Shown here piece by piece: positions 5,400 to 44,000 of a stretch of DNA of 57,431 nt. Numbering within the stretch: position 1 is the first letter of the stretch; the number at the start of each line of letters is the position of its first letter. The notes below the pieces were generated by a model. It saw only the letters and a list, made by a program, of their open reading frames with translations. It was not told the origin of the DNA and did not search any database. The DNA comes from Ministeria vibrans ATCC 50519. Its lineage: Eukaryota; Protista; Filasterea. The position numbers and the translations under genes are program-made. The stretch spans positions 1-57,431 of the forward strand of contig CALSCP010002583.1 in the NCBI GenBank assembly GCA_943704425.1, read 5' to 3'.

Positions 5400-5528
5400 C
5401 TTTGGTAAATTTTTGTCTGTTTGTTTGTTTTTTCGAATCGTTTACTCGACCAACCATTTTCACAACATTTTTATTCCCCAAAAAAACTTTCCCCACACAC
5501 CCACCAGCCACCGTTTTCTACGACAACC

Positions 5529-7055
5529 ATGCAGTTCGTACCCACGCAACACCCCATGCCCGTTCGGCGCGTCACCTCGGCAGCACACTTTGCTGCAGGG
5601 GACATTTCGGATGACGATGATGACGACGCATCCGGCGGCGGCGGAAGCGGCGCGATTGGCGTGCCTGATTGCAGTGCCCACTACTTTGCTCGCCGCGAGA
5701 TGGCCCTGGCCGCGGATTCGGTCGGCAGTGGCTATCAGGCGAGCGACAAGCAGGTTTGGACTGCGGCGATTACGACATCGCCCGCCACGCCTTCCCGTCT
5801 CCTCTCCCAGCCCTATTCGTTATCCCGTCACACCGCCGAACCCCCCGTCGTCGGCGATGTGCGCAGAGAAAGGAATCGTGAGGCGGCCGCTCGCTACCGT
5901 GAGCGACAGCGACTGCGCGAGCTCGAAATTCGCGCGGAAATTGAGCAAAACGAAAAAATCGTTGCGAATCTTCGCGCAAGTCTGTGTCGTCTTGAGGAGA
6001 CTCTCCAAGTGCCGCCGGCCGAACGAGTTGCCAATTGGCAGCCTCCTCAGCAGGTGGGTGGCGCCCTTGACAGCCTGAATGCCCTCATTGCCTCCAGTCC
6101 ATCCGTTTCTCTTGGCGCAAAGCACTCGACCACCTCTCACTCTGGCAGCGGTGGCCCCATGCGCTCCAGGCGCGAGCGAAACAACGAAAGCGTGCGCCGA
6201 TCACGTGAGCGTCGTCGTCTGGAGTCCTTGGTTCTTGAAGAGCGTGCCTCGATGCTTAAGCGAGTCGTCGAGGTACTGTCCCGTTGTCACAGTCAATTGT
6301 CAGGTCACCCCGTGTGCTTCGCATCGCCTGCGCCTTCATCCGGGAGTATGTTGCCCACTGCTGCTGCTGCTGCCGATGTTGCTGCTGCCGCCAATGCACC
6401 TACAGCTGCTCAGCGGGAGTTTGAGCCCGACGATGGTAATAATCGAGGTAGCATTGGTACATTGACAGAATATTCTAACGATGGCGACGACGTCATTGCC
6501 ACCACAAGTGACAGCGCCAACGCCGACGCCCACGACATCGACAACAACAACGACAACGACAATGACAACGATGATCAGGTTGTGGTTGTTGTAGAGAAGA
6601 CCGCTGACGTTGGCTCCGCGGCCGTTGAAGTTGGCGAAAGAGCGCCTGACGCAAGCACGCAATGCGGCGCGGAAATCATCATCGTCGCAAACGATACTCT
6701 CAATCCTAATCACAACAGCGGGATGGATACGACCCTCGATGACGACAGTTGCAAGCAAGAGAACGACAACAACGACAACAACAACGACGACGACGATGAC
6801 GAAGACGGCAAGTCGATGTACTCGAGCAACAGTAGCTGTGACAATGGCGGCTCTGGCAGTCAGCCCAGCGACTCGTATCGTAGCAAACGCCAACGCAACA
6901 ACGACGCCTCGCGACGTTGTCGGCAGCGCAAGAAGCAGGCCATGGACGAATTGGCGCACTATAATGCCCGCTTGGTTGCTGAAAACACAACATTGGCCAA
7001 AGAAAACGCGCTTCTTCGTCAACTTCTGTCTGAGCGCACTCCCGTTTCTGTCTAA
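5529..7055 (+). CDS. Intronless transcription factor with three bZIP modules (508 aa)
   Basis: Basic regions RRERNREAAARYRERQR, RRERNNESVRRSRERRR and KRQRNNDASRRCRQRKK. Each has the N-x7-R motif followed by leucine heptads. Confidence 0.85.
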   Translation: MQFVPTQHPMPVRRVTSAAHFAAGDISDDDDDDASGGGGSGAIGVPDCSAHYFARREMALAADSVGSGYQASDKQVWTAAITTSPATPSRLLSQPYSLSRHTAEPPVVGDVRRERNREAAARYRERQRLRELEIRAEIEQNEKIVANLRASLCRLEETLQVPPAERVANWQPPQQVGGALDSLNALIASSPSVSLGAKHSTTSHSGSGGPMRSRRERNNESVRRSRERRRLESLVLEERASMLKRVVEVLSRCHSQLSGHPVCFASPAPSSGSMLPTAAAAADVAAAANAPTAAQREFEPDDGNNRGSIGTLTEYSNDGDDVIATTSDSANADAHDIDNNNDNDNDNDDQVVVVVEKTADVGSAAVEVGERAPDASTQCGAEIIIVANDTLNPNHNSGMDTTLDDDSCKQENDNNDNNNDDDDDEDGKSMYSSNSSCDNGGSGSQPSDSYRSKRQRNNDASRRCRQRKKQAMDELAHYNARLVAENTTLAKENALLRQLLSERTPVSV

Positions 7056-8443: not shown

Positions 8444-11400
8444 TTACACGGCATCCACTCCCAAGTCGGTTTCAGCAAGAATCTTCTGCATCTCATCACT
8501 GAGAGGGGCAAGAGAGGGGTCGTCGATAAAATGGCGAGTGGCCGAGGTTTCGGGGAAGGAGGAGGAGTCGTGGCTGGGGGAGGAGGAGGAGTCGTGACTG
8601 GGAGAGTAGCGGTGGGAAGCAGTGGAGGAAGTGGTGGACTCGTCGGAAGGGTGAGGAGGGCTTGAGTTTGCGGTGTGTGACGACTGTCTTTGACTGTTGC
8701 TGGTGCTCACGGTATCATTAAGACTGTCAGGTGAGGCACCTGCAAGCGGTATGGGTGGCGCGGTAAAGTTCGAGAGTGCCTTGACGGCCGCACTGCCCGA
8801 GCCCAACTTGTTTGAGTAGGTCAGATGCATAGAGTCGGACACCATGTCGTCGCGGCAGGCGGGTGGCGCGGTCGGTGAGAGCATCGATTGTGTTGTAGCA
8901 CGGGACTGTGAAGTGCCTGTGGCAGTCGCCTTACTCACCGCCGCTGCTGTGCGTGGCATTCCTGTCGTAGACGCCCGACTTGCAGGGACCGCCACACTCG
9001 CCTCGGTGGTGTCATAACGCATCAGCAACGCACACATCTCACTGGAGTCCCCGCCCTGCCGCCGGGCCACACTCAACGGCGTCTCATGCATCATATTCCC
9101 ATGTGACGGCACTGCACCCGCCTCCAAAAGCACTTGCGCCACTTCAACATTCAGTTCACGCGCAGCCAAATACAGACTCGTATCCCCCTAAAAAAAAGCA
9201 ATTTTAATTATGAATAATATAATAACAATAAAAATGTAACAAACAAAATGTGTACCTTGAGAGTGGGTCTGTCAATGTTTGCGTTCTCACGCACAAGCAT
9301 ACGCACAATATCAGTGGCCCCCACTGCACTGGCCCAATGCAACGCACTCCATCCACTCGCATCCACACTCCACACAAACGCACCAGCTGAAAAAAGATGC
9401 ACACAATCAATTGCGCTTTTTTGGTTTCCCTCTTTGTCTTTCACGCACCTGTCAAAAGTCGACTCACAACATCCGTCATGGCATATTTACACGCACACAT
9501 CAAAGCTATACAATGAAACGTTAAATTTTTCTTCGTTCTTTTTATTTTTCGTTTCTTACCTGTTCTTCCGACGGTATCGCGAACATTGAGAAGCTCACGG
9601 ACATTGTGAGTGTGATCAAGGCAGTAGAAGACGCAGTCGGTGGCGGCGACGGAGCAGGCGGCATGAACACAGCTGAGCTGGTCAGCGTCGACAAGATACA
9701 GGTCGGCGCCGGCCGCAGTTAGGAGCTGGAGGGCTGGGAGGGAGCCCATGAGACACGCAATGAGTGCTGGTGTTTGCTTGTTCGCATTGACATGGTTCAC
9801 TTGTGCGCCGTGTGCAATGAGTTCGACAAGGCATTCCGTGGCGTTTGCCTCAATGGCCACGTAGAGCGCCGTGTTGCCGGCCGCATCGCTCTCGTTGATG
9901 GCCGCAGCAGGACTCTGCACTGTCCCCACTGATGTACTTGACGACATGGCAATCGACAAAATCGCATTGGCAACTTCGTCGCTGGACGAGAGCTGCGCAA
10001 CAGATGCCCCACTGTGGAGAAGTTCTTCGAGACTGGACGCCGTAATGGAATGTTGTTGTTGTTGTTGTTGTTGTTGCCGTTGTTGCTGTTGTTGCTGTTG
10101 TTGTTGTTGCTGTTGTTGTACGTTGTCGTATTGTTGCTGTGCCGCGCTGATGAGTGATGTGAGCGACACTACGTCGTTGCGCATACAGGCAGTGCGAATG
10201 TCGATAGCAAGCGACGAGAGACCCACCAAAGGTGTCACCGAGTCCATCTCCATAACGTAGGTAGTGGAAGTCTCGCGACGCTTGATATCGTGCAGCTTCA
10301 TCGACTCGACACGACTGCGTTTGCTCCGCCTGCCCCCTGCTCCTCCTCCTCTTCCTCTTCCTCCTCCAAGTGCATTCGTGGCACCACTTGCGGTGGTGCT
10401 CTGGCCATCGTTCTCTTCCTCTTCATCGTCGCTGTCGCCCTTGCGCGTACGTTTGCGACGACGCGCGACCACAGCAGCCAATACCACGACGAGGGCGAGC
10501 ATCAGAACTACAATGACGGCAATGGCAACAATGGTGCTTGTGGACAGACTCGACGACGGACTCGCTCCAGTAGGCATGAGAGGCACGTTGGATGACTGAA
10601 CGCCAGCGGCGACCAGACCCACCTCGGCGTTGCCCAGCAGCTCCATGGGATTCACGAGCGCCGATGAAGACAGGTAGTTGGCACACAGCGTGGGATTGGT
10701 GTTGGCCCAAGGGCTGTTGGCGCGCGGTTGATACGAAACACGCGCTCGCCATGCCGAGACGTTGCGCGACGCCATCGCTTCGGTCCACCTGGTGGACATA
10801 CCGCTCACGGCAACGCTCGTCTGCATCGATGCGTTGTACCACGCAAACAGATCGTACACGTCAATGGACATGACTGACACCTGCGAGACGAGCAGACTCG
10901 TCAGGCGGTACTGCAGCGTAGACATCGTCTCGTTCATGTTAAATGTCGTCATGTCCGTTGGTAAAAAGTACACCTCGAGAACGCCAATGTAGCTTGCGAG
11001 CGGGATGTCATCACAATCGCCACCGTCAAAACCGCAGGCAACGTTGTTGCACTGAAGATCGCAGGTGTTGTCGCCCACATGAGTGAGGCAATACGACTCG
11101 GAAGGACACACCGGAATCTCGCGGAGATACTCAAAAGGACCGGGGCAGGAGAAGCCGTTGAAGCTGCACTCAGCCACATTACAGGCAAGCTCAGACGCTG
11201 CTGTGCAATTTCCCGCGTCAAACGCCTGGCGGCACATGTCGCGCTGCGGGCAGCTCGCCCAGTAGTCATTGGCTTCGATACAGTCCAACCCGTCCCAATT
11301 GCACGCGGCGGTGTTGCACTACAAGGGGAAACGACGGCGCGTGAGAACCCACGGGAGTGCGCCGTCTCCTTTTGGCGACCCACAGCCACTGCTGCGACTC

Positions 11401-11883
11401 CCCTGCACCCCGTGCGACCCCAGCACACACTGCTCCAGCCACTCAAGTCGGGCCACCACAAACCCCCTTCCCCCCCCTTCACATAACACAGTTGCACAGT
11501 CGGCAAAAGTTGCACAAACATCCAAAAAAAAAAAAAAAAAAAAAAAAGGACGAGCCCTTAACATACCATATTGTCGCACGTTCCATCGCCAAACATCATC
11601 CAGCAGGACTGAACGCTGCATGATGAGTCGTATTCAAGCGCCGTTTGAGAGCGGGCTGGCCGTCTGACAGAGCAGAAGAAGAAAAGAAGAAAAAAAGGGT
11701 TCAGAGAAGGGTGTTCGGATGAGAGGACAGGTCGGAGACTTCGGGAGGTCGGTCACGACACAATGGGCAGGTTTTGGGGGGGGGAGAGAGAGAATGGAAG
11801 TCGGAGAGAGTCGGAAAGAGCGAAAAAGACAAAGCTTACGACAAAGTCCAAACCAGAAGCCCCAGCACTGCCAAGCGCATCAT
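8444..11883 (-). CDS. Notch-like receptor without EGF repeats: SP-3xLNR-HD-TM-ANK-PEST (6 exons: 11883-11840, 11663-11567, 11318-9560, 9505-9449, 9386-9256, 9187-8444; 943 aa)
   Basis: Signal peptide MMRLAVLGLLVWTLS; LNRs (FGDGTCDNMCNTAACNWDGLDC; CNVAECSFNGFSC; GDNTCDLQCNNVACGFDGGDC); TM followed by RRRKR; ankyrins including GWSALHWASAV and TSLYLAARE; S/P-rich tail. Confidence 0.88.
10050..10118 (-). repeat. Coding (CAA/CAG)n polyglutamine tract in the Notch-like intracellular domain
   Basis: Direct read of the sequence. Confidence 0.9.
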
Positions 11884-16803: not shown

Positions 16804-17746
16804 ATGAGCGCCTCCTCCGCTTTCAGTACGNNNNNNNNNNNNNNCGTACAAGGTGGCCGCGTCGCTTCTGTCGGGAATGCGCTCGTTCGCCAGGCACTAC
16901 CTGAGAAAGGGCTTCTCGCTGCACGAGCGCTATGCCAAGGGGCACGGCGCATCGTGGGCCGTTGTGACAGGCGGCTCGGACGGCATTGGCCTTGAGATCT
17001 GCCACCAGTTGGCTGCGCGCGGCTTTAATATTTGCATTGTGAGCCGAAACGCAGCCAAGATCGACGGCAGGCTTGCAGAGCTGGTCGCGGCGCATCCGAC
17101 GATTGCGACACGCGCGGTGGTTGTTGATTTTGGAAGGCTGTTCAAGATCAGCGACTACCAGGAGCGCATTGGCGCTGCACTGCAGGACATTGATGTTGCT
17201 ATGTTGTTCCTCAATGCCGGCTTCGTCCGCGTCGGTTCTTTCACGGACATTACCGCGCAGGAGATTGAGCAGTCAGTCATGATCAATGTGATGCAGCCCA
17301 TTTACACCGCCAAGGCACTTGTCGACCAGATGCTCAGCCGCAAGCATCTCTCGGCAATCGTCATTACCTCAAGCGGCCTAGGCTCCATGGCCATCCCGGG
17401 CTGTGTTGACTACAGCTGCGGCAAGTCCTTTGCCACTCTGCTCGGCGAAGGACTCAACTATGAGCTGGCAGGTAAGATTGACTGCATGGCATGGCAGTCG
17501 GGCAAGGTGGCGACCAAAATGAACGGCGCAACTGCCGATGGGAGTCACTGTGTCACGCCCAAGCAGGCGGTTGCGGGTATGCTCAACGACCTGGGACGCG
17601 AGAGCCTTACGTACGGCTGTGTAGCGCACTCCTAGAGCATGTTCATGGTGAGCTTGCTTCCCCAGTCGATCATCAAGCGCAAGTTCTTTGCTGGATTCAA
17701 GGAAGAGCGCTTGAAGCAGATCGAAATGGTGCGAAAAAGCGAATGA
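16804..17746 (+). CDS. Intronless short-chain dehydrogenase/reductase (3-ketoacyl-CoA reductase/17beta-HSD12-like) with an in-frame TAG at 17633-17635
   Basis: WAVVTGGSDGIG, LNAG, SS, YSCGK (YxxxK). The reading frame continues for 36 plausible codons after the TAG to a TGA at 17744-17746. Confidence 0.85.
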
Positions 17747-24140: not shown

Positions 24141-25870
24141 ATGAGTTCTCAAGACGCCGCCGTTGTAATGGAAGTGACGCACGGTGTGCCGTACAAGGAG
24201 ACGGAGGAAACGGAACGCGACGATGAAATTGAAAACTGCTCTGACGCCTCATCGGTGAGCAGCTCTGCTGCCTCGAGTAGCGCCGCTGATAGCAGCAGCG
24301 ACAGCAGCTCGAGCGACAGCAGCTCGAGCGAGAGTGGCGAGGACGACGACAGCGCTGGCGAAGGCGCCGACGCGTCGCCGCAGCCCAAAGCGGCTGCGTC
24401 AACAGCAGCAGCAGCCGGTAGGAGCACACCGGCGCCCTGCCGCTTCGTGCCAGCCCCATCACTCACACGTGTACCCCCATATTAGCTCAATCGGCGTCTG
24501 TCGCTTCAGACGAAGGACAGAGCGCGACAAAAAGAAAGGCTGCGACGGGAATCAAACGAGCTGCGCCAGCGGCCGATCTCAAAGGTATTTCCCACCCACT
24601 TGCCCTCCCTTCGTTCCCTTGGCGTGTCTTTCTATGCGTTTCCGGCCCGATTTGCTCTCAAATGAGACGCATTTTTCCATTTCAATGATTTGGCGCCAAA
24701 ATCAAAAATGAAAATGTCAAAAAAAGAAACGAATGCACTTCTACAGTCTCCTTCGCTTTTCTTCTCCTCGCTTTCCTTCTCCAACATTCGTACTTTTGTA
24801 TTTTGTACACTGTGTCGTGTTTTTCGCCAACCATTCGTGCCGTACTCTCGGCTGTGCTCTCAGTTTTGTTTTTTGTGTCATGAACATATTTTGCTTCTTC
24901 TTTTGTAGGTACGCCAGCCTCCAAGCGACGAAGAAGAACCGCTGCGGAGCGTGCAGAGGCGGCGCAGGCGAAGAAGGAGCGAGCGGAAGCAAGAGCGGCG
25001 AAGAAACTTGCGCATGAACAGGCAAAGGCAGCCAAAGCCATTGAGGTGCAGGCAATGAAGGAGCGCAAGGCGCGTGAAAAGGCGGAGCGCGAGGAACAGC
25101 GCAAGAAGGAGCGCCTGTTGACGAGTGCGCAGCGAGAGGAGTTGCGCGTGAAGCGCGAGAAGGAGAAAGCGGAGCGCGTGGAGAAACGTCGAGTGGAGGC
25201 GGAGCAGCGTGCGCTGAAGAAGAAGGAAGAGGCGGAGCTGAAGGCAAAGCGCGCCATTGAGCGCGCCGAGGCCAAGAAGCAACGCGATATGGAGAAAGAG
25301 AAGGAGAAGGAGGTGCAGCGGAAGAAGCGCGAGGAGGAGAAGGCGGAGCGAAAGAGGCGCGAGGAGGAGGAAAAAAAGAAGAAGGAAATCAAAACACGAC
25401 CGCTCACGTCGTTCTTTGCGCCCAAGGCCGAGAAGGCCAAGAAGAAGACGACGGAAGAGACATCGATCTCCACTGTTGACACCGCGTCTTCCACTTTGAC
25501 AAACGCCAACGCCACCATGGATAGTGCCACTGCGGCGCCCGCGAGCATGGAAGGTGTTGTTATGGTGGACGCCACCCTTGCCACCGACGTCACCGAGTCG
25601 TCGTCGTCGTCGTCATCGGGCTTGTCGTCTCCCAAACAGGGACCCGTTGCCAAGTTTCGGCCGTACCGCGCACCCGACGGTGTCGAACTGGCGCCCGTGC
25701 ACTCGCGCGAGCCCTGCTCAGTGTGTCCTCTCGATTGTGGGCAGACGTTGGCGTCAACGGGTTTCAGTTGGTTGGTGTCGCAGCGGGGACGCAAGCACGC
25801 GCCACGCGTGCGCACTAGCACAGTGCGCCCCACTCCGGCACTCCCCTCGTGGATTGTCAGTAACAACAGC

Positions 25871-25904
<34 letters not shown>

Positions 25905-27550
25905 GTAGCAAATCGGTCATTGATGTGGACAGTGATGAGCAGCAGCAGCGGAAGCAACAGGACGAAGAGGACGTGGCCATGCTCGATGCAGTCGTGTCGT
26001 CAGTCAAGCTGCGTGCGCCGACGTATAAATTGTTGCAGTTTCACACCAATGTGCGTCCGCCGTACTTTGGGACGTGGACACAGAAGCGATCGGATGCGGT
26101 GGGACCTCGACGGCCGTTTGCCATGGAACTCGACACGACCGTGGTTGACTACGACTATGACTCGGAGGAGGACTGGGAGGAAGACGAAGGTGGTGAGAGT
26201 CTGGCGGGGTCCGAGGTGGGCGACGACGAGGAGGACGTTGGCGGTGAGGATGAGCTCGAGGACGGCTTCGTCGTGCCCCATGGGTACTTGAGTGCCGATG
26301 AAGGGCTCGAAGAGGACGACGAGGAAGGTGGTGGCGGTGACTCTGCTGCTGCTCTCCTTGCTGCCGGAAGCGCCGACTTGCCTGTGACGGAGGCGGATCG
26401 CAAGCGCAATGCAAAGGTGCGCCACTGGGAAACCGAGGCGGAGATGGCGCATGCGCCCAAAGCCATTGTGTTGGTGGGACCATTGTGGCAATCGCAAGAG
26501 GATCGTGTGGCCGGCAAGGCAATTCTCAAGCGCAGTGGTCAAGGAAATCTCTCATCAGACGACTACACGGCACTGCGTGTAGCGCGCTCGTGTGAGAAAC
26601 TCTACCAGTTGCGTGGACGCCTGCTCATGGTGCCTGGGACGAACCGCACACCGGATGGCACGTACGAAGAGGAAGCGGTGGATGGCAAGACGGGCTTGAC
26701 TGGTGGCGACGCTGCTACGGGGACCTGTGGTGGTGATCAAGGCGAGGGTGGAGACGGAGCGGAGGGCGGTGCGGACGCGCTGAAGGGCAAGAAGAAGCGA
26801 ACACCTCGCGTGAAGAACGAGTCGCCTATTCAGGTGCCACTCGACGTGGCAGCGCAACTGCTGCGACATGTGCACAACAGTCGCGAGGGACTGGGTTCCC
26901 TCGTGGAGCACTTTCGCAAGGACCACCCGGCCGCAGGCAAGGGTGCCATTGAGAAGACCATCCGCAATACGGCCGTGAAAGGCCAGCGTCCCAAGGAACG
27001 GTTCAAGCGCTGGATTGTCAAGCCCGAGTACATTGAGCGCTACAAGATTGACCTCAAGTAAGACAGAGGAGAGATGAGATGAGAGATGGAGAGGGGGGAA
27101 AAGTTAGAACGGAGGACTGTGGATGTATTTGTGTGTGTGTGTATCTATATTGACATGTGGTACCCGCGTAGTGCGTTTGGATTGGGTGGAGCCAAGGGAC
27201 TGCCAAAACCAAAGCGCACGCCCACACCCAAAACGAAAGTAGCGGCCGCTACGTCAGCGACAAGCAGTACAGCTACGGGTGAGTCTGCTGCGACTGCTAG
27301 TGCTGCTGCTTCTGAGAGTGAACCTGGTGATGTGGAGATGACACCAGTGACGCCTGGTGGAGAGGCAATGGGGGTGGTGACGCCCCTGACGGGCGCAAGC
27401 AATAGCAGCAATGAGGAGAACAAGGTGGTGAGCAGCAGTGGCTCTGTGACAAGTCGTGTGACGGACGCGGCTGAGAGTGGATCGCCCATCAAGAGCATGG
27501 AAGGACTCGATGAGATGGCAGACGCACCACAGCCCATGATGGTCGAGTGA
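24141..27550 (+). CDS. CHAF1A: Chromatin assembly factor 1 subunit A (p150/Cac1)
   Basis: KER coiled coil; PIP-like PLTSFF; KLLQFHTNVRPPYFGTW; DYDYDSEEDWEE; FVVPHGYLSADEG; C-terminal winged-helix-like region. Confidence 0.92.
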
Positions 27551-27772
27551 GGAGCTAAACAAGACGCAAGAGAGAGACAGAGAGGCAGAGACAGACGGAG
27601 AGTAGCAATGGAGCGTGTGATGAAAACCCAATCAAACAATTTAATAATAATACTTTTTTGTTTTATTATTCTTCCGTTAAGAGAGACCCATTTCACACAC
27701 TCTCTCAGTCACACACACACACACACAATCGCACTCACACAGGAAGTCACTCAAAACAAAACAGGTGGTCTC

Positions 27773-29484
27773 TTATTGGAAAGGAGAGGCTCTGGGGGCC
27801 CTGGGGGAAAGTGTAGGGGCATCCTTGAAGATAGTGATGGAGCGGAGCTGGCGCTGGAAGGCAAGCTTGTTGCCAATGATGAGAGGACGCACGGAAGCCT
27901 CAACACCCACCTGCGAGCCCTTGTAGATGCCCACTTCATCGGCACGCACGCGTGTCCTAATGAACATAGAGACAGAGAGACAGACAGAAAAAGAGAGAGA
28001 AAATAATAAGAAAAAAAAATAACAGAATGAGAAAGGGAAGTAAGAGTGGATGGGAATGGACTGACCCTGAGACGGCGTGGAAGACGCTGAGATAGCGGCG
28101 AACCAGACCCATTGTCTTGTAGATCTCCTCATCTTCCTCGCTGAAGAAGTTGGTGGGCACCTTGGAGCCCTCGAAAGGGCGATAGAAAACGTTTTGCCTA
28201 ACACCCAAAGCAAGCGACGGTATTAAAATTATTTTATTATTTTTATGAAATTGCAGTTTGGAACTTACTTGAAGGTGGCTGAGCCTGAATTGGGAATGAT
28301 TTGACGTTCGGGGTTTCTCTTGTAGGAGGGAATGTGCGACGTGTTGGTCTCGAGCACGGCTGCCTTGATGTCCTCGGTCATGTGAGAGAGACTGCGGGTG
28401 ACTTCGGGGTAGTCTGAGGGATTGGCGATGACGTGCGAGAGGAGGGCAGTGCGCAAGTCCTCGAGCCAGTCAACGTAGCGAAGCATGAGCTCGTTGGCTT
28501 CCGACGCCTATGAAACACACACAAATTAAAATGCGTCGAGAATCAGAGAGACGGGTCGACACAAAAAAGACAAAGAAAATACCTCGTCTAAGGGCAGACA
28601 GTTGACGGAGATCTCATAGACAGCCTTCTCAGGCTCGGTCACGAACACACCGCCAAAGAGTTCCTTCTGGAAGTTTCCAGAGGGCTTGCAGTGGGCATAG
28701 GAGACGACGGCGGGGGGCGCCAGATGCGCCAGACCCAACACTGCCTTGTCCTGCTGTGCATCGAAGAAGGCCGGCACGTTTCCGCCTTTGGGCCTCGCAT
28801 GCGCCACAATTTTGAGCTCGCTGGGGTTGATGTTGACAAAGGCCGTCTCCTTGGTCATGAACGTGGCCAGCGTCGCCTCCATGTCGACGCGCGCTGCAGA
28901 GGAAACACGTTTTTGTGTCAGGCGCAGAAACGAGAAGCATACGGCCACACGACAGGCACCGCGTCGCATCCAATTAATAGGCGCCCCTCCAAAGCCCAGG
29001 ATGCGGGGGGTGGCGTACGGCATAGCGTGCGGGTGGAGGCGGGCAGTCGAGTGGAAAAGAAGGCGAAAAAGACACTGATGCGAATGCTGTAAGCGCCCCT
29101 CTGGCCATGGCGAGGCCGGCAGGGCCTTGGCAAGCGTGGCCGAGGGTGCGGGGCGAAGCGCCAGGCGACGGTGCACAGCGAGAAGTGGCAGAAAAGGGCA
29201 AAAGAGCAAAGAACGAGCAACGCGCCAAAACGGAAATGAAAAAGAGAGAAAGGGAATGGCGCCAGCGAAGGGGCAAGAAGAGAGCAGGCTGCGGTCGGGT
29301 CGATGAGGCACAGACGAGTGCGATGAGGCGATGAAACGCGATAAACGGGAAAAGAGCAAATGAAGAAGAAAAACGAAAACACAGACAGACACACACACAC
29401 AGACAGACTCATACCGGCGGCAGTGGAGGAGAGCATGCGTCGGCTGCCAAAAGCGGCCACGCGACGAAGGGAAGCGGTGAGCAT
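27773..29484 (-). CDS. Mitochondrion-targeted protein, putative phage/giant-virus-type OB-fold ssDNA-binding protein (5 exons: 29484-29415, 28893-28583, 28507-28269, 28197-28066, 27956-27773; 311 aa)
   Basis: All exons join in frame through GT-AG sites. Presequence MLTASLRRVAAFGSRRMLSSTAA. Motifs VSYAHCKP..GNF..KAVYEISV and IYKGSQVGVEASVRP..GNKLAFQRQLRSITI. The gene model is strong; the function is inferred. Confidence 0.6.
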
Positions 29485-29745
29485 GAGTGAGTTGTTGAGT
29501 TGAAGGGGGAGAAAAAAATAGTTTTGATGAGATGATTGCTATTTGATCGAAGTTGAAGGTAACAATTTGTTTTGCACTTGTTCTGTCCACCACCAAAAAA
29601 CACTGACCAGGATGACGCCCGCCACATGCATATTGCATAGACAGATGGGAGTTCCGCGCCTTCCTGCCGCCGTGGTGCGGCTGGTGTCCCGATTAGCAGA
29701 CGCATTCATACGATCAGTCTGAGGGCACAAACACAGACAGTGCTG

Positions 29746-40926: not shown

Positions 40927-43782
40927 TCATCTCCAAACACGCGCCAGAACTGCAGCAGTCACAAACACCATAAAAGATGAGTACGCCGCGACGCGTCGCG
41001 TAGACAAAACATTAAAATTGGGAGGGACAGGCCGTGATTGTGCACCGCTATTAATACTGTGGCTGTGGGCCTCTTCTGCTCCCCCTCTCGTGCCCTCGAG
41101 GAGAAGGTTGGGCTCCAACTCGGGCGGTCGTTCTTCTCTCCCTGGCTCAAGTGCGTTTTGGGGTACTTCTGTTGTGGCAACGACGTGTAGGTCGAGGGCG
41201 GTCATGGAGTGCGGGCGAGAGTCGCTGAGGAGGCACTGGAAGAGAATGAGCGCGAGTCGAAGCGAGAGAGCATTGATCGTCGTCGCGTCGGTGCGAGAAG
41301 CATTTGCAGCGCCAGGTGACTGTGCTTGACAATCCGGAGTGTTCTCGTATGTCCCAACAATGGCCCGCTCAAGCCGTCCTGTCCGCCTGCATATATTTTC
41401 GCAACGGCAGCCATAGGTTGTCGCGCCTACAATATTGAGGTCGTCACCCAAACGCGCCGTACAAATTTCAACCGCGCTCTTGTACGACTCGGCCGCAAAC
41501 GTATCGTCGTCCAGGGCCATAAATACGTTCCCTAGTTCCGTCAATGCCTCAGCCGCAAGAAGGGAGTTCTGGTCGGCAATGCAGCGGCACGCACACGCTG
41601 CAGCAAGCAAAGCAGCCGAAAGATTCTTCAGGGTGCGCCACATACGACTGAGTCGGATGCCAAGCCATACCACAGCCTCGTCCTCCCCATCCATCGACAC
41701 AATGTCTCCGGCGCACAGAGTCACCATCAGCCGCATTCCTTCTGTGCCCACGCGTCGACTCCACTCCTCATCACGCCTGACCTTCTCCGCATCGTCAATC
41801 TGCCCTTGCAACACCACAGCCGCCAACTCAACGGCACACCGCATCTCCTCATCGTTCTCAAACGCACTCGCAAGGCACTCGTCCCGTCTCGACTGCGGCA
41901 AAAGAACGGCTACACGAGACAACGTGTGCACCACTTTGTAGTGATGGAGCAAACCCAATGCAATCTCAACGACACCTTCGCCCTTGGCTCGCTTCGCCTG
42001 TTCCCCGTCGCCCGTCACCAGCAGACGTACCACGTCCATGTGCACCTCAAAGCCAGCGAACAGACCCAGTAGTCCAACAAGCTTCTTCTTCACCGTCGCG
42101 TCTCCTCGAGGGTCCTCCAGGGCTCCACGCACACACATCTGCGCTGAACTGGGTGCCGCCTGCGATACCATTTTTGTCAGCGAGATAGCTTGCTGGTCCA
42201 CCTGCGCCACCATTGACTTCAACTCCTCTTCTGGGCCGCCCGCCAAAAGACTTCGCAGATACTCGACAGCCTCGCCGCCCGTAAATGGCGCCACTTTCAA
42301 GGGAGCCTTCGTCTCGAGCAGATCCGTGACTTCCTGCTCACACGTTGAAAGCATCTTTCCCGCCGACGAAAAGAGTGCATGCATTTTTTCCGCTATCTCA
42401 TCACAGCCGTCAATGACCATCAACCAGCGGCGTTCGCACAGCAACCATTTCTCCAGTGCATCCACACGCGTACCAGCACCCACAACGTCCCCAACCGCAA
42501 GGGAGAGGTACTGCACGACCGCATCAAACGACTCGGAAAGTGACTGTGAATTCGTGCCGTCGAGCCAGAAGACGTATTGGTACAGGTGTGCGTTGCGTCT
42601 TGCATACTCAACGGCCAACGCAGTCTTCAGCATGGTGCCCGACGCAGATAAAACCACGATCGCTTCCTTTTCGAGACGCTCCTTGATATTAGCCAGGTCT
42701 TCCTCACGCTCCAGAGTTGACATGGGCAACGCAGGGACCATAGCAAGCTTGTCAAACTCGGTGTAGTCGTGGTTCACCACCACAAACTCGCCCGTGTTCT
42801 CGTGCTCGCGCCATGGCAGTCGACCCAGTATGGATGTCATGCGAAACGCGACAAAGTCATTGCGAACGTTTTCGTCAGTGCTTTCGCCCCCATCAACGGC
42901 CAGCGCGTCGGACATGAGCTCATCGACTTTGTCCGCCAAGCATCCAATGGTCGCCCAGAGCGCCGGTCCCTCTTTTGCGCGTACAAAGGCGCTACCGTTC
43001 CAGGCGGGGCGCAGCCAGGCGTTTCGCAACGCCGTGTGCATTATCGTGCCCGTACAGTGGCAATATCCGAAGAAGGCGCGGGGCACGGACGCCAAGCAGT
43101 GGCAAGACCCGTGACTCTGGTGCGCTCTCAGCTGTGGTATGCTAGTGCCTCTGGCCCGCAAAGATGCACACTGTTTGTCTACCGCACCACCCGAGTGGCA
43201 GGTGTCGAGTATCAGCAAGATTCGTCCCCAGCGGTCAGACGTGTCGACCTGCAAGTCATCATGCAGCTGGTCGACGGTGTAGGCTCCCTCGTAGTACAAA
43301 TCCTCATCGACAGTACCGTCGTCGTTGATCACGGTCCGCTGGTAGCAGCGAGTGTCGGCAAAGGCAGCACCGTACGACCCGTTGTCGTTGAGAAGGCCGT
43401 GCGAGCAGACGTACACGACAAGTTCATCGCGTTCCGGTGCGCATTGCGGGTGCATGAGAGCAAGGGCGTCAATCGCCTCGAGGATGTTCGCATGCCCCGA
43501 AGGCTCCTGTCGCCACTGGAGGCTGCCAGTGTCGACAGCGGCGACTGCAGCGTCGGCATACATTTGCTCATCCGCATCGCTGTCAGGAAAGGCAGACTCT
43601 GACAGCGCCATGGGCGTGTCGGCGAGCACGAGAACCTTGTAGTCGTTGTGGACAAGGTCAACTGCCATGTTGCGCGCGGAGGGGCCGACGCCTTGCAGCG
43701 GGTCGAGGGAAAGTTGTTGAGGGTCGAATAGTCCCCGGCTGATGACGAGAGCGTACTTTCTCTCACCGTACTTGCCATGCAT
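40927..43782 (-). CDS. Intronless caspase-like (clan CD) + NB-ARC-like NTPase + TPR protein (NLR/STAND-like), 951 aa
   Basis: KYALVIS, LVVYVCSHG (His), ILLILDTCHSG (Cys); REEDLANIKERL...IVVLSASGTMLKTALAVEYARR...YQYVFWLDG; RWLMVIDGCD; TPR AEALTELGNVF...AAESYKSAVEI. Confidence 0.82.
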   Translation of the reverse strand: MHGKYGERKYALVISRGLFDPQQLSLDPLQGVGPSARNMAVDLVHNDYKVLVLADTPMALSESAFPDSDADEQMYADAAVAAVDTGSLQWRQEPSGHANILEAIDALALMHPQCAPERDELVVYVCSHGLLNDNGSYGAAFADTRCYQRTVINDDGTVDEDLYYEGAYTVDQLHDDLQVDTSDRWGRILLILDTCHSGGAVDKQCASLRARGTSIPQLRAHQSHGSCHCLASVPRAFFGYCHCTGTIMHTALRNAWLRPAWNGSAFVRAKEGPALWATIGCLADKVDELMSDALAVDGGESTDENVRNDFVAFRMTSILGRLPWREHENTGEFVVVNHDYTEFDKLAMVPALPMSTLEREEDLANIKERLEKEAIVVLSASGTMLKTALAVEYARRNAHLYQYVFWLDGTNSQSLSESFDAVVQYLSLAVGDVVGAGTRVDALEKWLLCERRWLMVIDGCDEIAEKMHALFSSAGKMLSTCEQEVTDLLETKAPLKVAPFTGGEAVEYLRSLLAGGPEEELKSMVAQVDQQAISLTKMVSQAAPSSAQMCVRGALEDPRGDATVKKKLVGLLGLFAGFEVHMDVVRLLVTGDGEQAKRAKGEGVVEIALGLLHHYKVVHTLSRVAVLLPQSRRDECLASAFENDEEMRCAVELAAVVLQGQIDDAEKVRRDEEWSRRVGTEGMRLMVTLCAGDIVSMDGEDEAVVWLGIRLSRMWRTLKNLSAALLAAACACRCIADQNSLLAAEALTELGNVFMALDDDTFAAESYKSAVEICTARLGDDLNIVGATTYGCRCENICRRTGRLERAIVGTYENTPDCQAQSPGAANASRTDATTINALSLRLALILFQCLLSDSRPHSMTALDLHVVATTEVPQNALEPGREERPPELEPNLLLEGTRGGAEEAHSHSINSGAQSRPVPPNFNVLSTRRVAAYSSFMVFVTAAVLARVWR

Positions 43783-44000
43783 GGGGACACAAGAAAGATT
43801 GTAAATCTATAGGCTGTGAGCGAGAGAGGCAGGCGAAAGAAAGGCTGTTTGAATAAATAATAATAATTTTGATAAAATTGCATTTTAATCGACAGAACGT
43901 CAAAAAACAAAATCACTCATTGACTCATTCTTTACTCTTCAATCGTAAGCTGCCACTCGTGACCAATTTGAACGTGCTTTTTTCTTCACTCACTGCTTCC

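Follow-up and report, generated by a model that had tools for sequence, protein, structure and literature searches.

A spliced, expressed gene of Ministeria vibrans encodes a protein with a predicted mitochondrial presequence and a possible viral-type single-stranded DNA-binding fold

We examined a gene of the filasterean Ministeria vibrans ATCC 50519 that a first-pass annotation, made from the sequence alone, had described as encoding a mitochondrial protein similar to the phage and giant-virus proteins that bind single-stranded DNA (ssDNA), known as SSBs. The gene lies on contig CALSCP010002583.1 (assembly GCA_943704425.1), and the 57,431 nucleotides at positions 1 to 57,431 of its forward strand are the window that was analysed. 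The SSB-like gene occupies 29484-27773 on the minus strand. Its five exons comprise 936 nt, which encode 311 amino acids and a stop codon, and its four introns (521, 75, 71, and 109 nt) all have GT-AG ends. The gene lies between a CAF1A gene (PF12253) and a WD40 gene; the flanking genes are ordinary eukaryotic genes and none of them is viral. The GC content at third codon positions is 0.74 for the SSB-like gene versus 0.56-0.70 for seven neighbouring genes. The parts of the gene are as follows.

29484-29415, minus strand: exon 1, encoding residues 1-23; putative presequence for mitochondria, containing a motif like an R-3-type cleavage site, R16-M-L/S19 (the slash marks the putative cleavage site)
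29414-28894, minus strand: intron 1, 521 nt, GT-AG, phase 1; lies between the presequence and the mature part; bridged in sequencing runs X14, X15, X18, X19, and X20
28893-28583, minus strand: exon 2, residues 24-127; N-terminal extension, putative beta1 (V-SYAH, Y89), and putative beta2 (YEISV, 116)
28507-28269, minus strand: exon 3, residues 128-207; putative long amphipathic helix right after beta2, linker, and putative beta3 (ATFK)
28197-28066, minus strand: exon 4, residues 207-251; putative beta3 ends here (F211), and there is an insertion that exceeds those of the viral families in length
27956-27773, minus strand: exon 5, residues 251-311; putative beta4-beta5 hairpin (IYKGS ... QLRSI), followed by a tail that is basic, rich in Pro, and terminated by PFQ
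27772-27640, minus strand: 3' untranslated region up to the poly(A) site; the X14 contig has its poly-T loose end at 27640

Sequencing data that hold all or part of the stretch come from 20 runs in 10 studies, and we examined contigs from eight of these runs. One contig from X14 (1089 nt, with the poly-T end) and one from X15 (1053 nt) each traverse all five exons. Contigs from X9, X18, X19, and X20 bridge part of the introns; X20, which bridges introns 1 and 2, is the sole intron-bridging run that is recorded as RNA-Seq (PolyA). Intron sequence is present unspliced in contigs from the DNA-labelled runs X8 and X13. The 5' ends of the transcript contigs are at 29487-29509, and the first ATG there is at 29484. 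Overall, contigs from six studies show splicing and expression, which confirms that this is a real gene. The neighbouring CAF1A gene (24884-27650, plus strand) has a probable last exon that ends at 27550, with transcript contigs that extend to 27565 (X14) and 27650 (X9); the 3' ends of this gene and of the SSB-like gene (poly(A) at 27640) therefore adjoin or overlap.

Close relatives of the protein are lacking. Among 1.84 billion representative sequences, exon 2 matched only itself. Against a set of 5.8 billion sequences, none of the 439 candidates for exon 2 was homologous, and neither was any of the 31 candidates for exon 5. Scans of viral, metagenome, and GTDB sequences gave nothing real. 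Searches of Pfam, PHROGs, and NCBIfam with four exon peptides returned no match at the cut-off, and the bacterial SSB domain of Pfam did not match any of these four peptides.

The N-terminus looks like a mitochondrial presequence. Residues 1-24 include four Arg, six Ala, and four Ser but no Asp or Glu (the first acidic residue is D27), and the amphipathic moment of the N-terminus reaches 0.67. Residues 16-20 read RML/SS, which we take to be an R-3 processing motif. Of the 913 Met-started 26-mers in the window, just two passed our presequence composition rule, and one of these is the start of this gene. By this rule and the motif, the 311-aa product is very probably targeted to mitochondria, a prediction that comes from a home-made rule. 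These results bear out two points of the first-pass annotation: the gene is intact, with GT-AG at every intron and transcript contigs that join across all four, and exon 1 is (by rule) presequence-like, being rich in Arg, Ser, and Ala, free of acidic residues, and endowed with an RMLS motif.

The first-pass annotation had also proposed, by eye, that the mature part follows the layout of T7 gp2.5, DUF2815, and the SSBs of giant viruses (nucleocytoplasmic large DNA viruses, NCLDV). All of the motifs that it listed are in place: SYAH at 88, YEISV at 116, the helix at 135-155, ATFK at 204, IYKGS at 261, QLRSI at 287, and PFQ at the C-terminus. (LSVF is present at 243-246 and was not among the core elements that we tested.) For comparison, we used sets of viral SSBs comprising 77 of 117 NCLDV, 79 PF24083, 63 Enc34-type, and 22 T7-type sequences, which were gathered by motif scans and from annotated records, with Pfam identity checked for nine members. 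From these four families we built a core profile of five ungapped elements in fixed order. The protein scores 27.7 bits, and its best placement, with V-SYAH at 87, YEISV at 116, ATFK at 204, IYKGS at 261, and the QLRSI strand at 284, consists of motifs named beforehand, in the same order. This score was reached by 9 of 2,000 shuffled sequences and by none of 105 real-protein decoys or 89 proteins from the matches to ALKBH6 (another gene in the window); for the reversed sequence, the count of shuffles was 409 of 500. E. coli SSB scores 5.3. When each family was left out in turn, the gene's z was 1.0-4.1, and the true members that had been held out, 20 in all, gave -0.4 to 3.8. In an unguided MAFFT alignment, Enc34 ORF6, T7 gp2.5, and this protein are colinear, and the best local alignment falls in the expected register for three of the four family profiles. 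Furthermore, an amphipathic stretch (128-155; the 18-mer that starts at 128 has a hydrophobic moment of 0.47) directly follows the YEISV strand, and a long helix straight after beta2 is a hallmark of T7-type SSBs, according to the part of PMC5686142 that we consulted.

The ESM Atlas and the structure models, which cover single exon peptides, point the same way for exon 5. Its top match in the Atlas scored 0.90, with 193 of 256 features in common (recognition 2821). Five of the six rows shown bear PF24083, PF10991 (Enc34), or PF21265 (T7) on 10-29% of their members, and none bears the bacterial SSB family. The ten best family-bearing matches all agree in family or clan, and the families named are those that had been predicted before this search. 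The AlphaFold model of exon 5 alone comprises a short strand and a long hairpin of two strands, with a turn at KGS (AF2 strands E8-11, E14-27, and E30-43; mean predicted local distance difference test, pLDDT, of 71.8). The modelled hairpin is as would be expected for beta4-beta5 of an oligonucleotide-binding (OB) fold, which in T7-type SSBs is a barrel of five strands. For exon 2, AF2 gave a strand at residues 115-123, but with a poor mean pLDDT of 42. A T7-type SSB fold is probable, being supported and not proven; the gene is a real orphan whose viral-SSB fold is credible but unproven.

Several results weigh against this assignment. The five-element test was designed after the gene was seen and is therefore post hoc. 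When its spacing was loosened, 48 of 1,000 shuffles and 3 of 105 decoys reached the score, and three of the four spacers (23, 81, and 51) lie beyond the longest seen in the families (19, 71, and 44). The spliced protein did not score above its shuffles in a hidden Markov model (HMM) of any family (NCLDV, PF24083, Enc34, or T7) or in the pooled profile, and automatic block tests with three profiles were reached by 58, 603, and 905 of 1,000 shuffles. In the ESM Atlas, exon 2 gave no usable match; the Atlas itself warns that 4-10 of 100 shuffled proteins reach 0.9 and that agreement of 10 out of 10 arises one third of the time. Foldseek searches with exon 5 gave no match with E at or below 0.001 and no T7-type structure in 45 rows, and VIA-align on the exon 5 hairpin found no significant match and listed no T7-type structure. 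Overall, the likeness to T7-type SSBs appears to be above chance only modestly. Instead, this could be a mitochondrial protein specific to the lineage, with a different fold or a generic cellular OB fold, and the SSB-like motifs would be chance or convergent strand patterns. The non-significant HMM, BLAST, and structure searches and the post hoc motif test would fit this, as would the 10 of 45 PDB rows from Foldseek that are cellular OB proteins (Rim1, human mitochondrial SSB (mtSSB), bacterial SSBs, and CST), all with E of 2 or more. However, the same tests also miss true homologs across families: against the NCLDV profile, hhalign gave probabilities of 2.9% for this gene (for the segment with beta2 and the helix), 4.8% for T7 gp2.5, and 5.9% for Enc34, and T7 gp2.5 reached just 8.2% against the Enc34 family profile. 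Because of this, null HMM results cannot reject a true remote member and the blank searches weigh little. Since the Atlas match names families predicted in advance and E. coli SSB is far lower on the core profile, we consider another fold to be rather unlikely.

A related question is whether a T7-type fold would still bind DNA as an SSB does. By alignment, Y89 lies at Enc34 Y30 and N280 at Enc34 N154, while K207 lies at T7 K107 and F211 at T7 Y111, which is presumably a base-stacking residue. (The passages of PMC10359462 mention aromatic residues in general only.) At other sites the protein departs from the viral families. The conserved stacking aromatic (Enc34 W150 / T7 Y158) appears to be replaced by L276, by an ungapped alignment after a shared Pro; the basic position Enc34 R112 / T7 K109 is N209; and the acidic tail is absent, with one acidic and five basic residues among the last 30. 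If the protein works at all, it would do so in the manner of a T7-type SSB. Because the acidic tail and the stacking aromatic are defining features, we do not file the protein as a member of the T7-type SSB family; of the layout proposed at the outset, the motifs and their order hold up, with the Atlas neighbours and the ordered-motif test in support, and the HMM and structure searches and these two features do not bear it out. The same departures would suit a T7-type OB fold that was kept but repurposed in mitochondria, for instance to bind RNA, associate with the mitoribosome, or pack nucleoids, and that has ceased to serve as a replication SSB. L276 and N209 occupy positions that, in the account of PMC5686142, hold an aromatic (conserved) and a basic residue in T7-type SSBs, and the missing tail is the part that, in the same account, gives Enc34 ORF6 its preference for ssDNA over dsDNA. 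Repurposing would also fit the long insertions (the exon 4 spacer is 51, versus at most 44 in four families) and the near-neutral mature part (isoelectric point of 6.7). Yet the matches at four DNA-contact positions (Y89, K207, F211, and N280) speak for DNA binding, and PMC5686142 describes the binding surface as only partly conserved across T7-type SSBs anyway, so we regard a repurposed fold as improbable. The missing tail would be in keeping with a mitochondrial location, since bacterial-type mtSSBs have no such tail either, as described in PMC2965674. Finally, given that the targeting call uses a home-made rule, the protein might be nuclear or cytosolic (for example, a captured viral SSB), with exon 1 as a basic N-terminal extension. 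We consider this very unlikely: there is no acidic residue before D27, the amphipathic moment reaches 0.67, the R-3-type motif sits in a separate phase-1 exon, and just one other 26-mer in the window passes the rule.

The reading that we favour is that of a domesticated viral-type SSB, a putative ssDNA binder that would act on mitochondrial DNA (mtDNA) at forks or in annealing; on the sequence evidence, the odds for this functional assignment are about even. A phage or giant-virus SSB gene would have entered the nuclear genome long ago; there it would have picked up introns and a presequence exon, its codon use would have come to resemble that of the host, and the acidic tail that recruits the viral polymerase and helicase would have been lost. 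The product would be imported into mitochondria and cleaved near L18/S19; at the replication forks of mtDNA, the mature protein, with a T7 gp2.5-type OB domain, would then coat ssDNA. Alternatively, it may anneal strands in mtDNA repair or recombination, like gp2.5 and the phage-derived Mgm101. It is doubtful that the protein goes so far as to serve as the working mtSSB of this unicellular relative of animals, with the bacterial-type SSB replaced and the polymerase, helicase, and SSB all of viral type; in that case it would be the first cellular protein in a family regarded as virus-specific.

Compared with known systems, the protein shares with T7 gp2.5 (PF21265) and Enc34 ORF6/DUF2815 (PF10991) the order of the core elements, the putative long helix after beta2, the Atlas neighbours of exon 5, and, in the last hairpin, GS-x-V-x-V-x-x-S-x-x-P and QL-x-S (beta4 is ungapped versus T7). 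Unlike them, it is encoded by a nuclear gene with introns and a presequence, is about 100 aa longer, lacks the acidic tail, has L276 at the stacking aromatic, and gives no significant HMM score. With the gp2.5-like SSBs of NCLDV (matched by DUF5871, PF19196) it has in common an N-terminal extension before beta1, a putative long helix-linker region, and the KGS turn. Theirs was the best of the three automatic block profiles (58 of 1,000 shuffles), and its size class is that of their 300-aa subgroup, but it lacks their W-F-x-x-x-x-FG-x-TWKL motif and their acidic tail and has no significant score. Canonical mtSSB/Rim1 resembles it in likely compartment, proposed role, and the absence of an acidic tail (the last from the part of PMC2965674 seen). 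It is much longer than these proteins, has the putative long helix after beta2, and has no Pfam SSB match on any exon peptide tested; its length and the putative helix argue against the bacterial-type SSB family, in which a short capping helix lies between beta3 and beta4. Mgm101, a Rad52/Sak-type annealing protein of phage origin, is a precedent for the domestication of a phage-derived ssDNA protein for mtDNA maintenance (as presented in the part of PMC3655812 seen). It differs in fold and is widespread, unlike this gene, which has no detected relatives.

The mtSSB of opisthokonts is of the bacterial type, despite their phage-derived polymerase. In the sections of PMC10877234 that we consulted, opisthokont Pol gamma is assigned a T-odd phage origin, and acanthoecid choanoflagellates are reported to have POP instead of Pol gamma. 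Because some choanoflagellates use POP, a T7-like replisome is not guaranteed in this host. T7-like SSBs are described as virus-specific, with no close cellular homologs, in the portion of PMC4889955 seen, and we found no report of a gp2.5-like or phage-type SSB in mitochondria in the full-text literature, a search whose scope excludes most subscription journals and supplements. DUF2738-domain genes have been counted in Hydra genomes (PMC7642931, in part) and in Polinton-like viruses (10.1101/2022.07.28.501842, in part), and therefore eukaryotic genomes do contain SSB domains of viral type; neither source assigns them a function or targeting. If the favoured reading is true, mitochondria would here contain a viral replication protein that has been domesticated. 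The replaceability of mtSSB would then become testable; for lineages that lost mtSSB, its replacement is left open in the part of PMC12797587 that we saw. If the fold call fails, this is an ordinary orphan mitochondrial protein.

Other genes in the window were noted in passing. A 959-aa open reading frame (40927-43806, minus strand) shows, on inspection by eye, His-Gly and Cys motifs like those of caspases and, after them, P-loop-like and repeat-like regions, which we take to be an NLR-like layout; it had no Pfam match at 1e-5. For ALKBH6, the named best matches are from animals and early-branching fungi, mostly at 44-54% identity. These matches and the Notch-like receptor described below would place the host among the opisthokonts, as a probable unicellular holozoan that lacks near relatives in the database. 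An intronless short-chain dehydrogenase gene (16808-17635, plus strand) lies right after a gap of Ns and might reflect either a misjoin or gene transfer. Another intronless gene (5409-7055, plus strand) encodes a protein with several bZIP domains. At 8444-11760 on the minus strand is a Notch-like receptor of LNR-TM-ankyrin layout, in which the LNR repeats are several, TM is a transmembrane segment, and no EGF repeat was seen in the open reading frames read; this layout is that of the "Notch-like" gene of Monosiga, as given in the part of PMC2770060 that we consulted.
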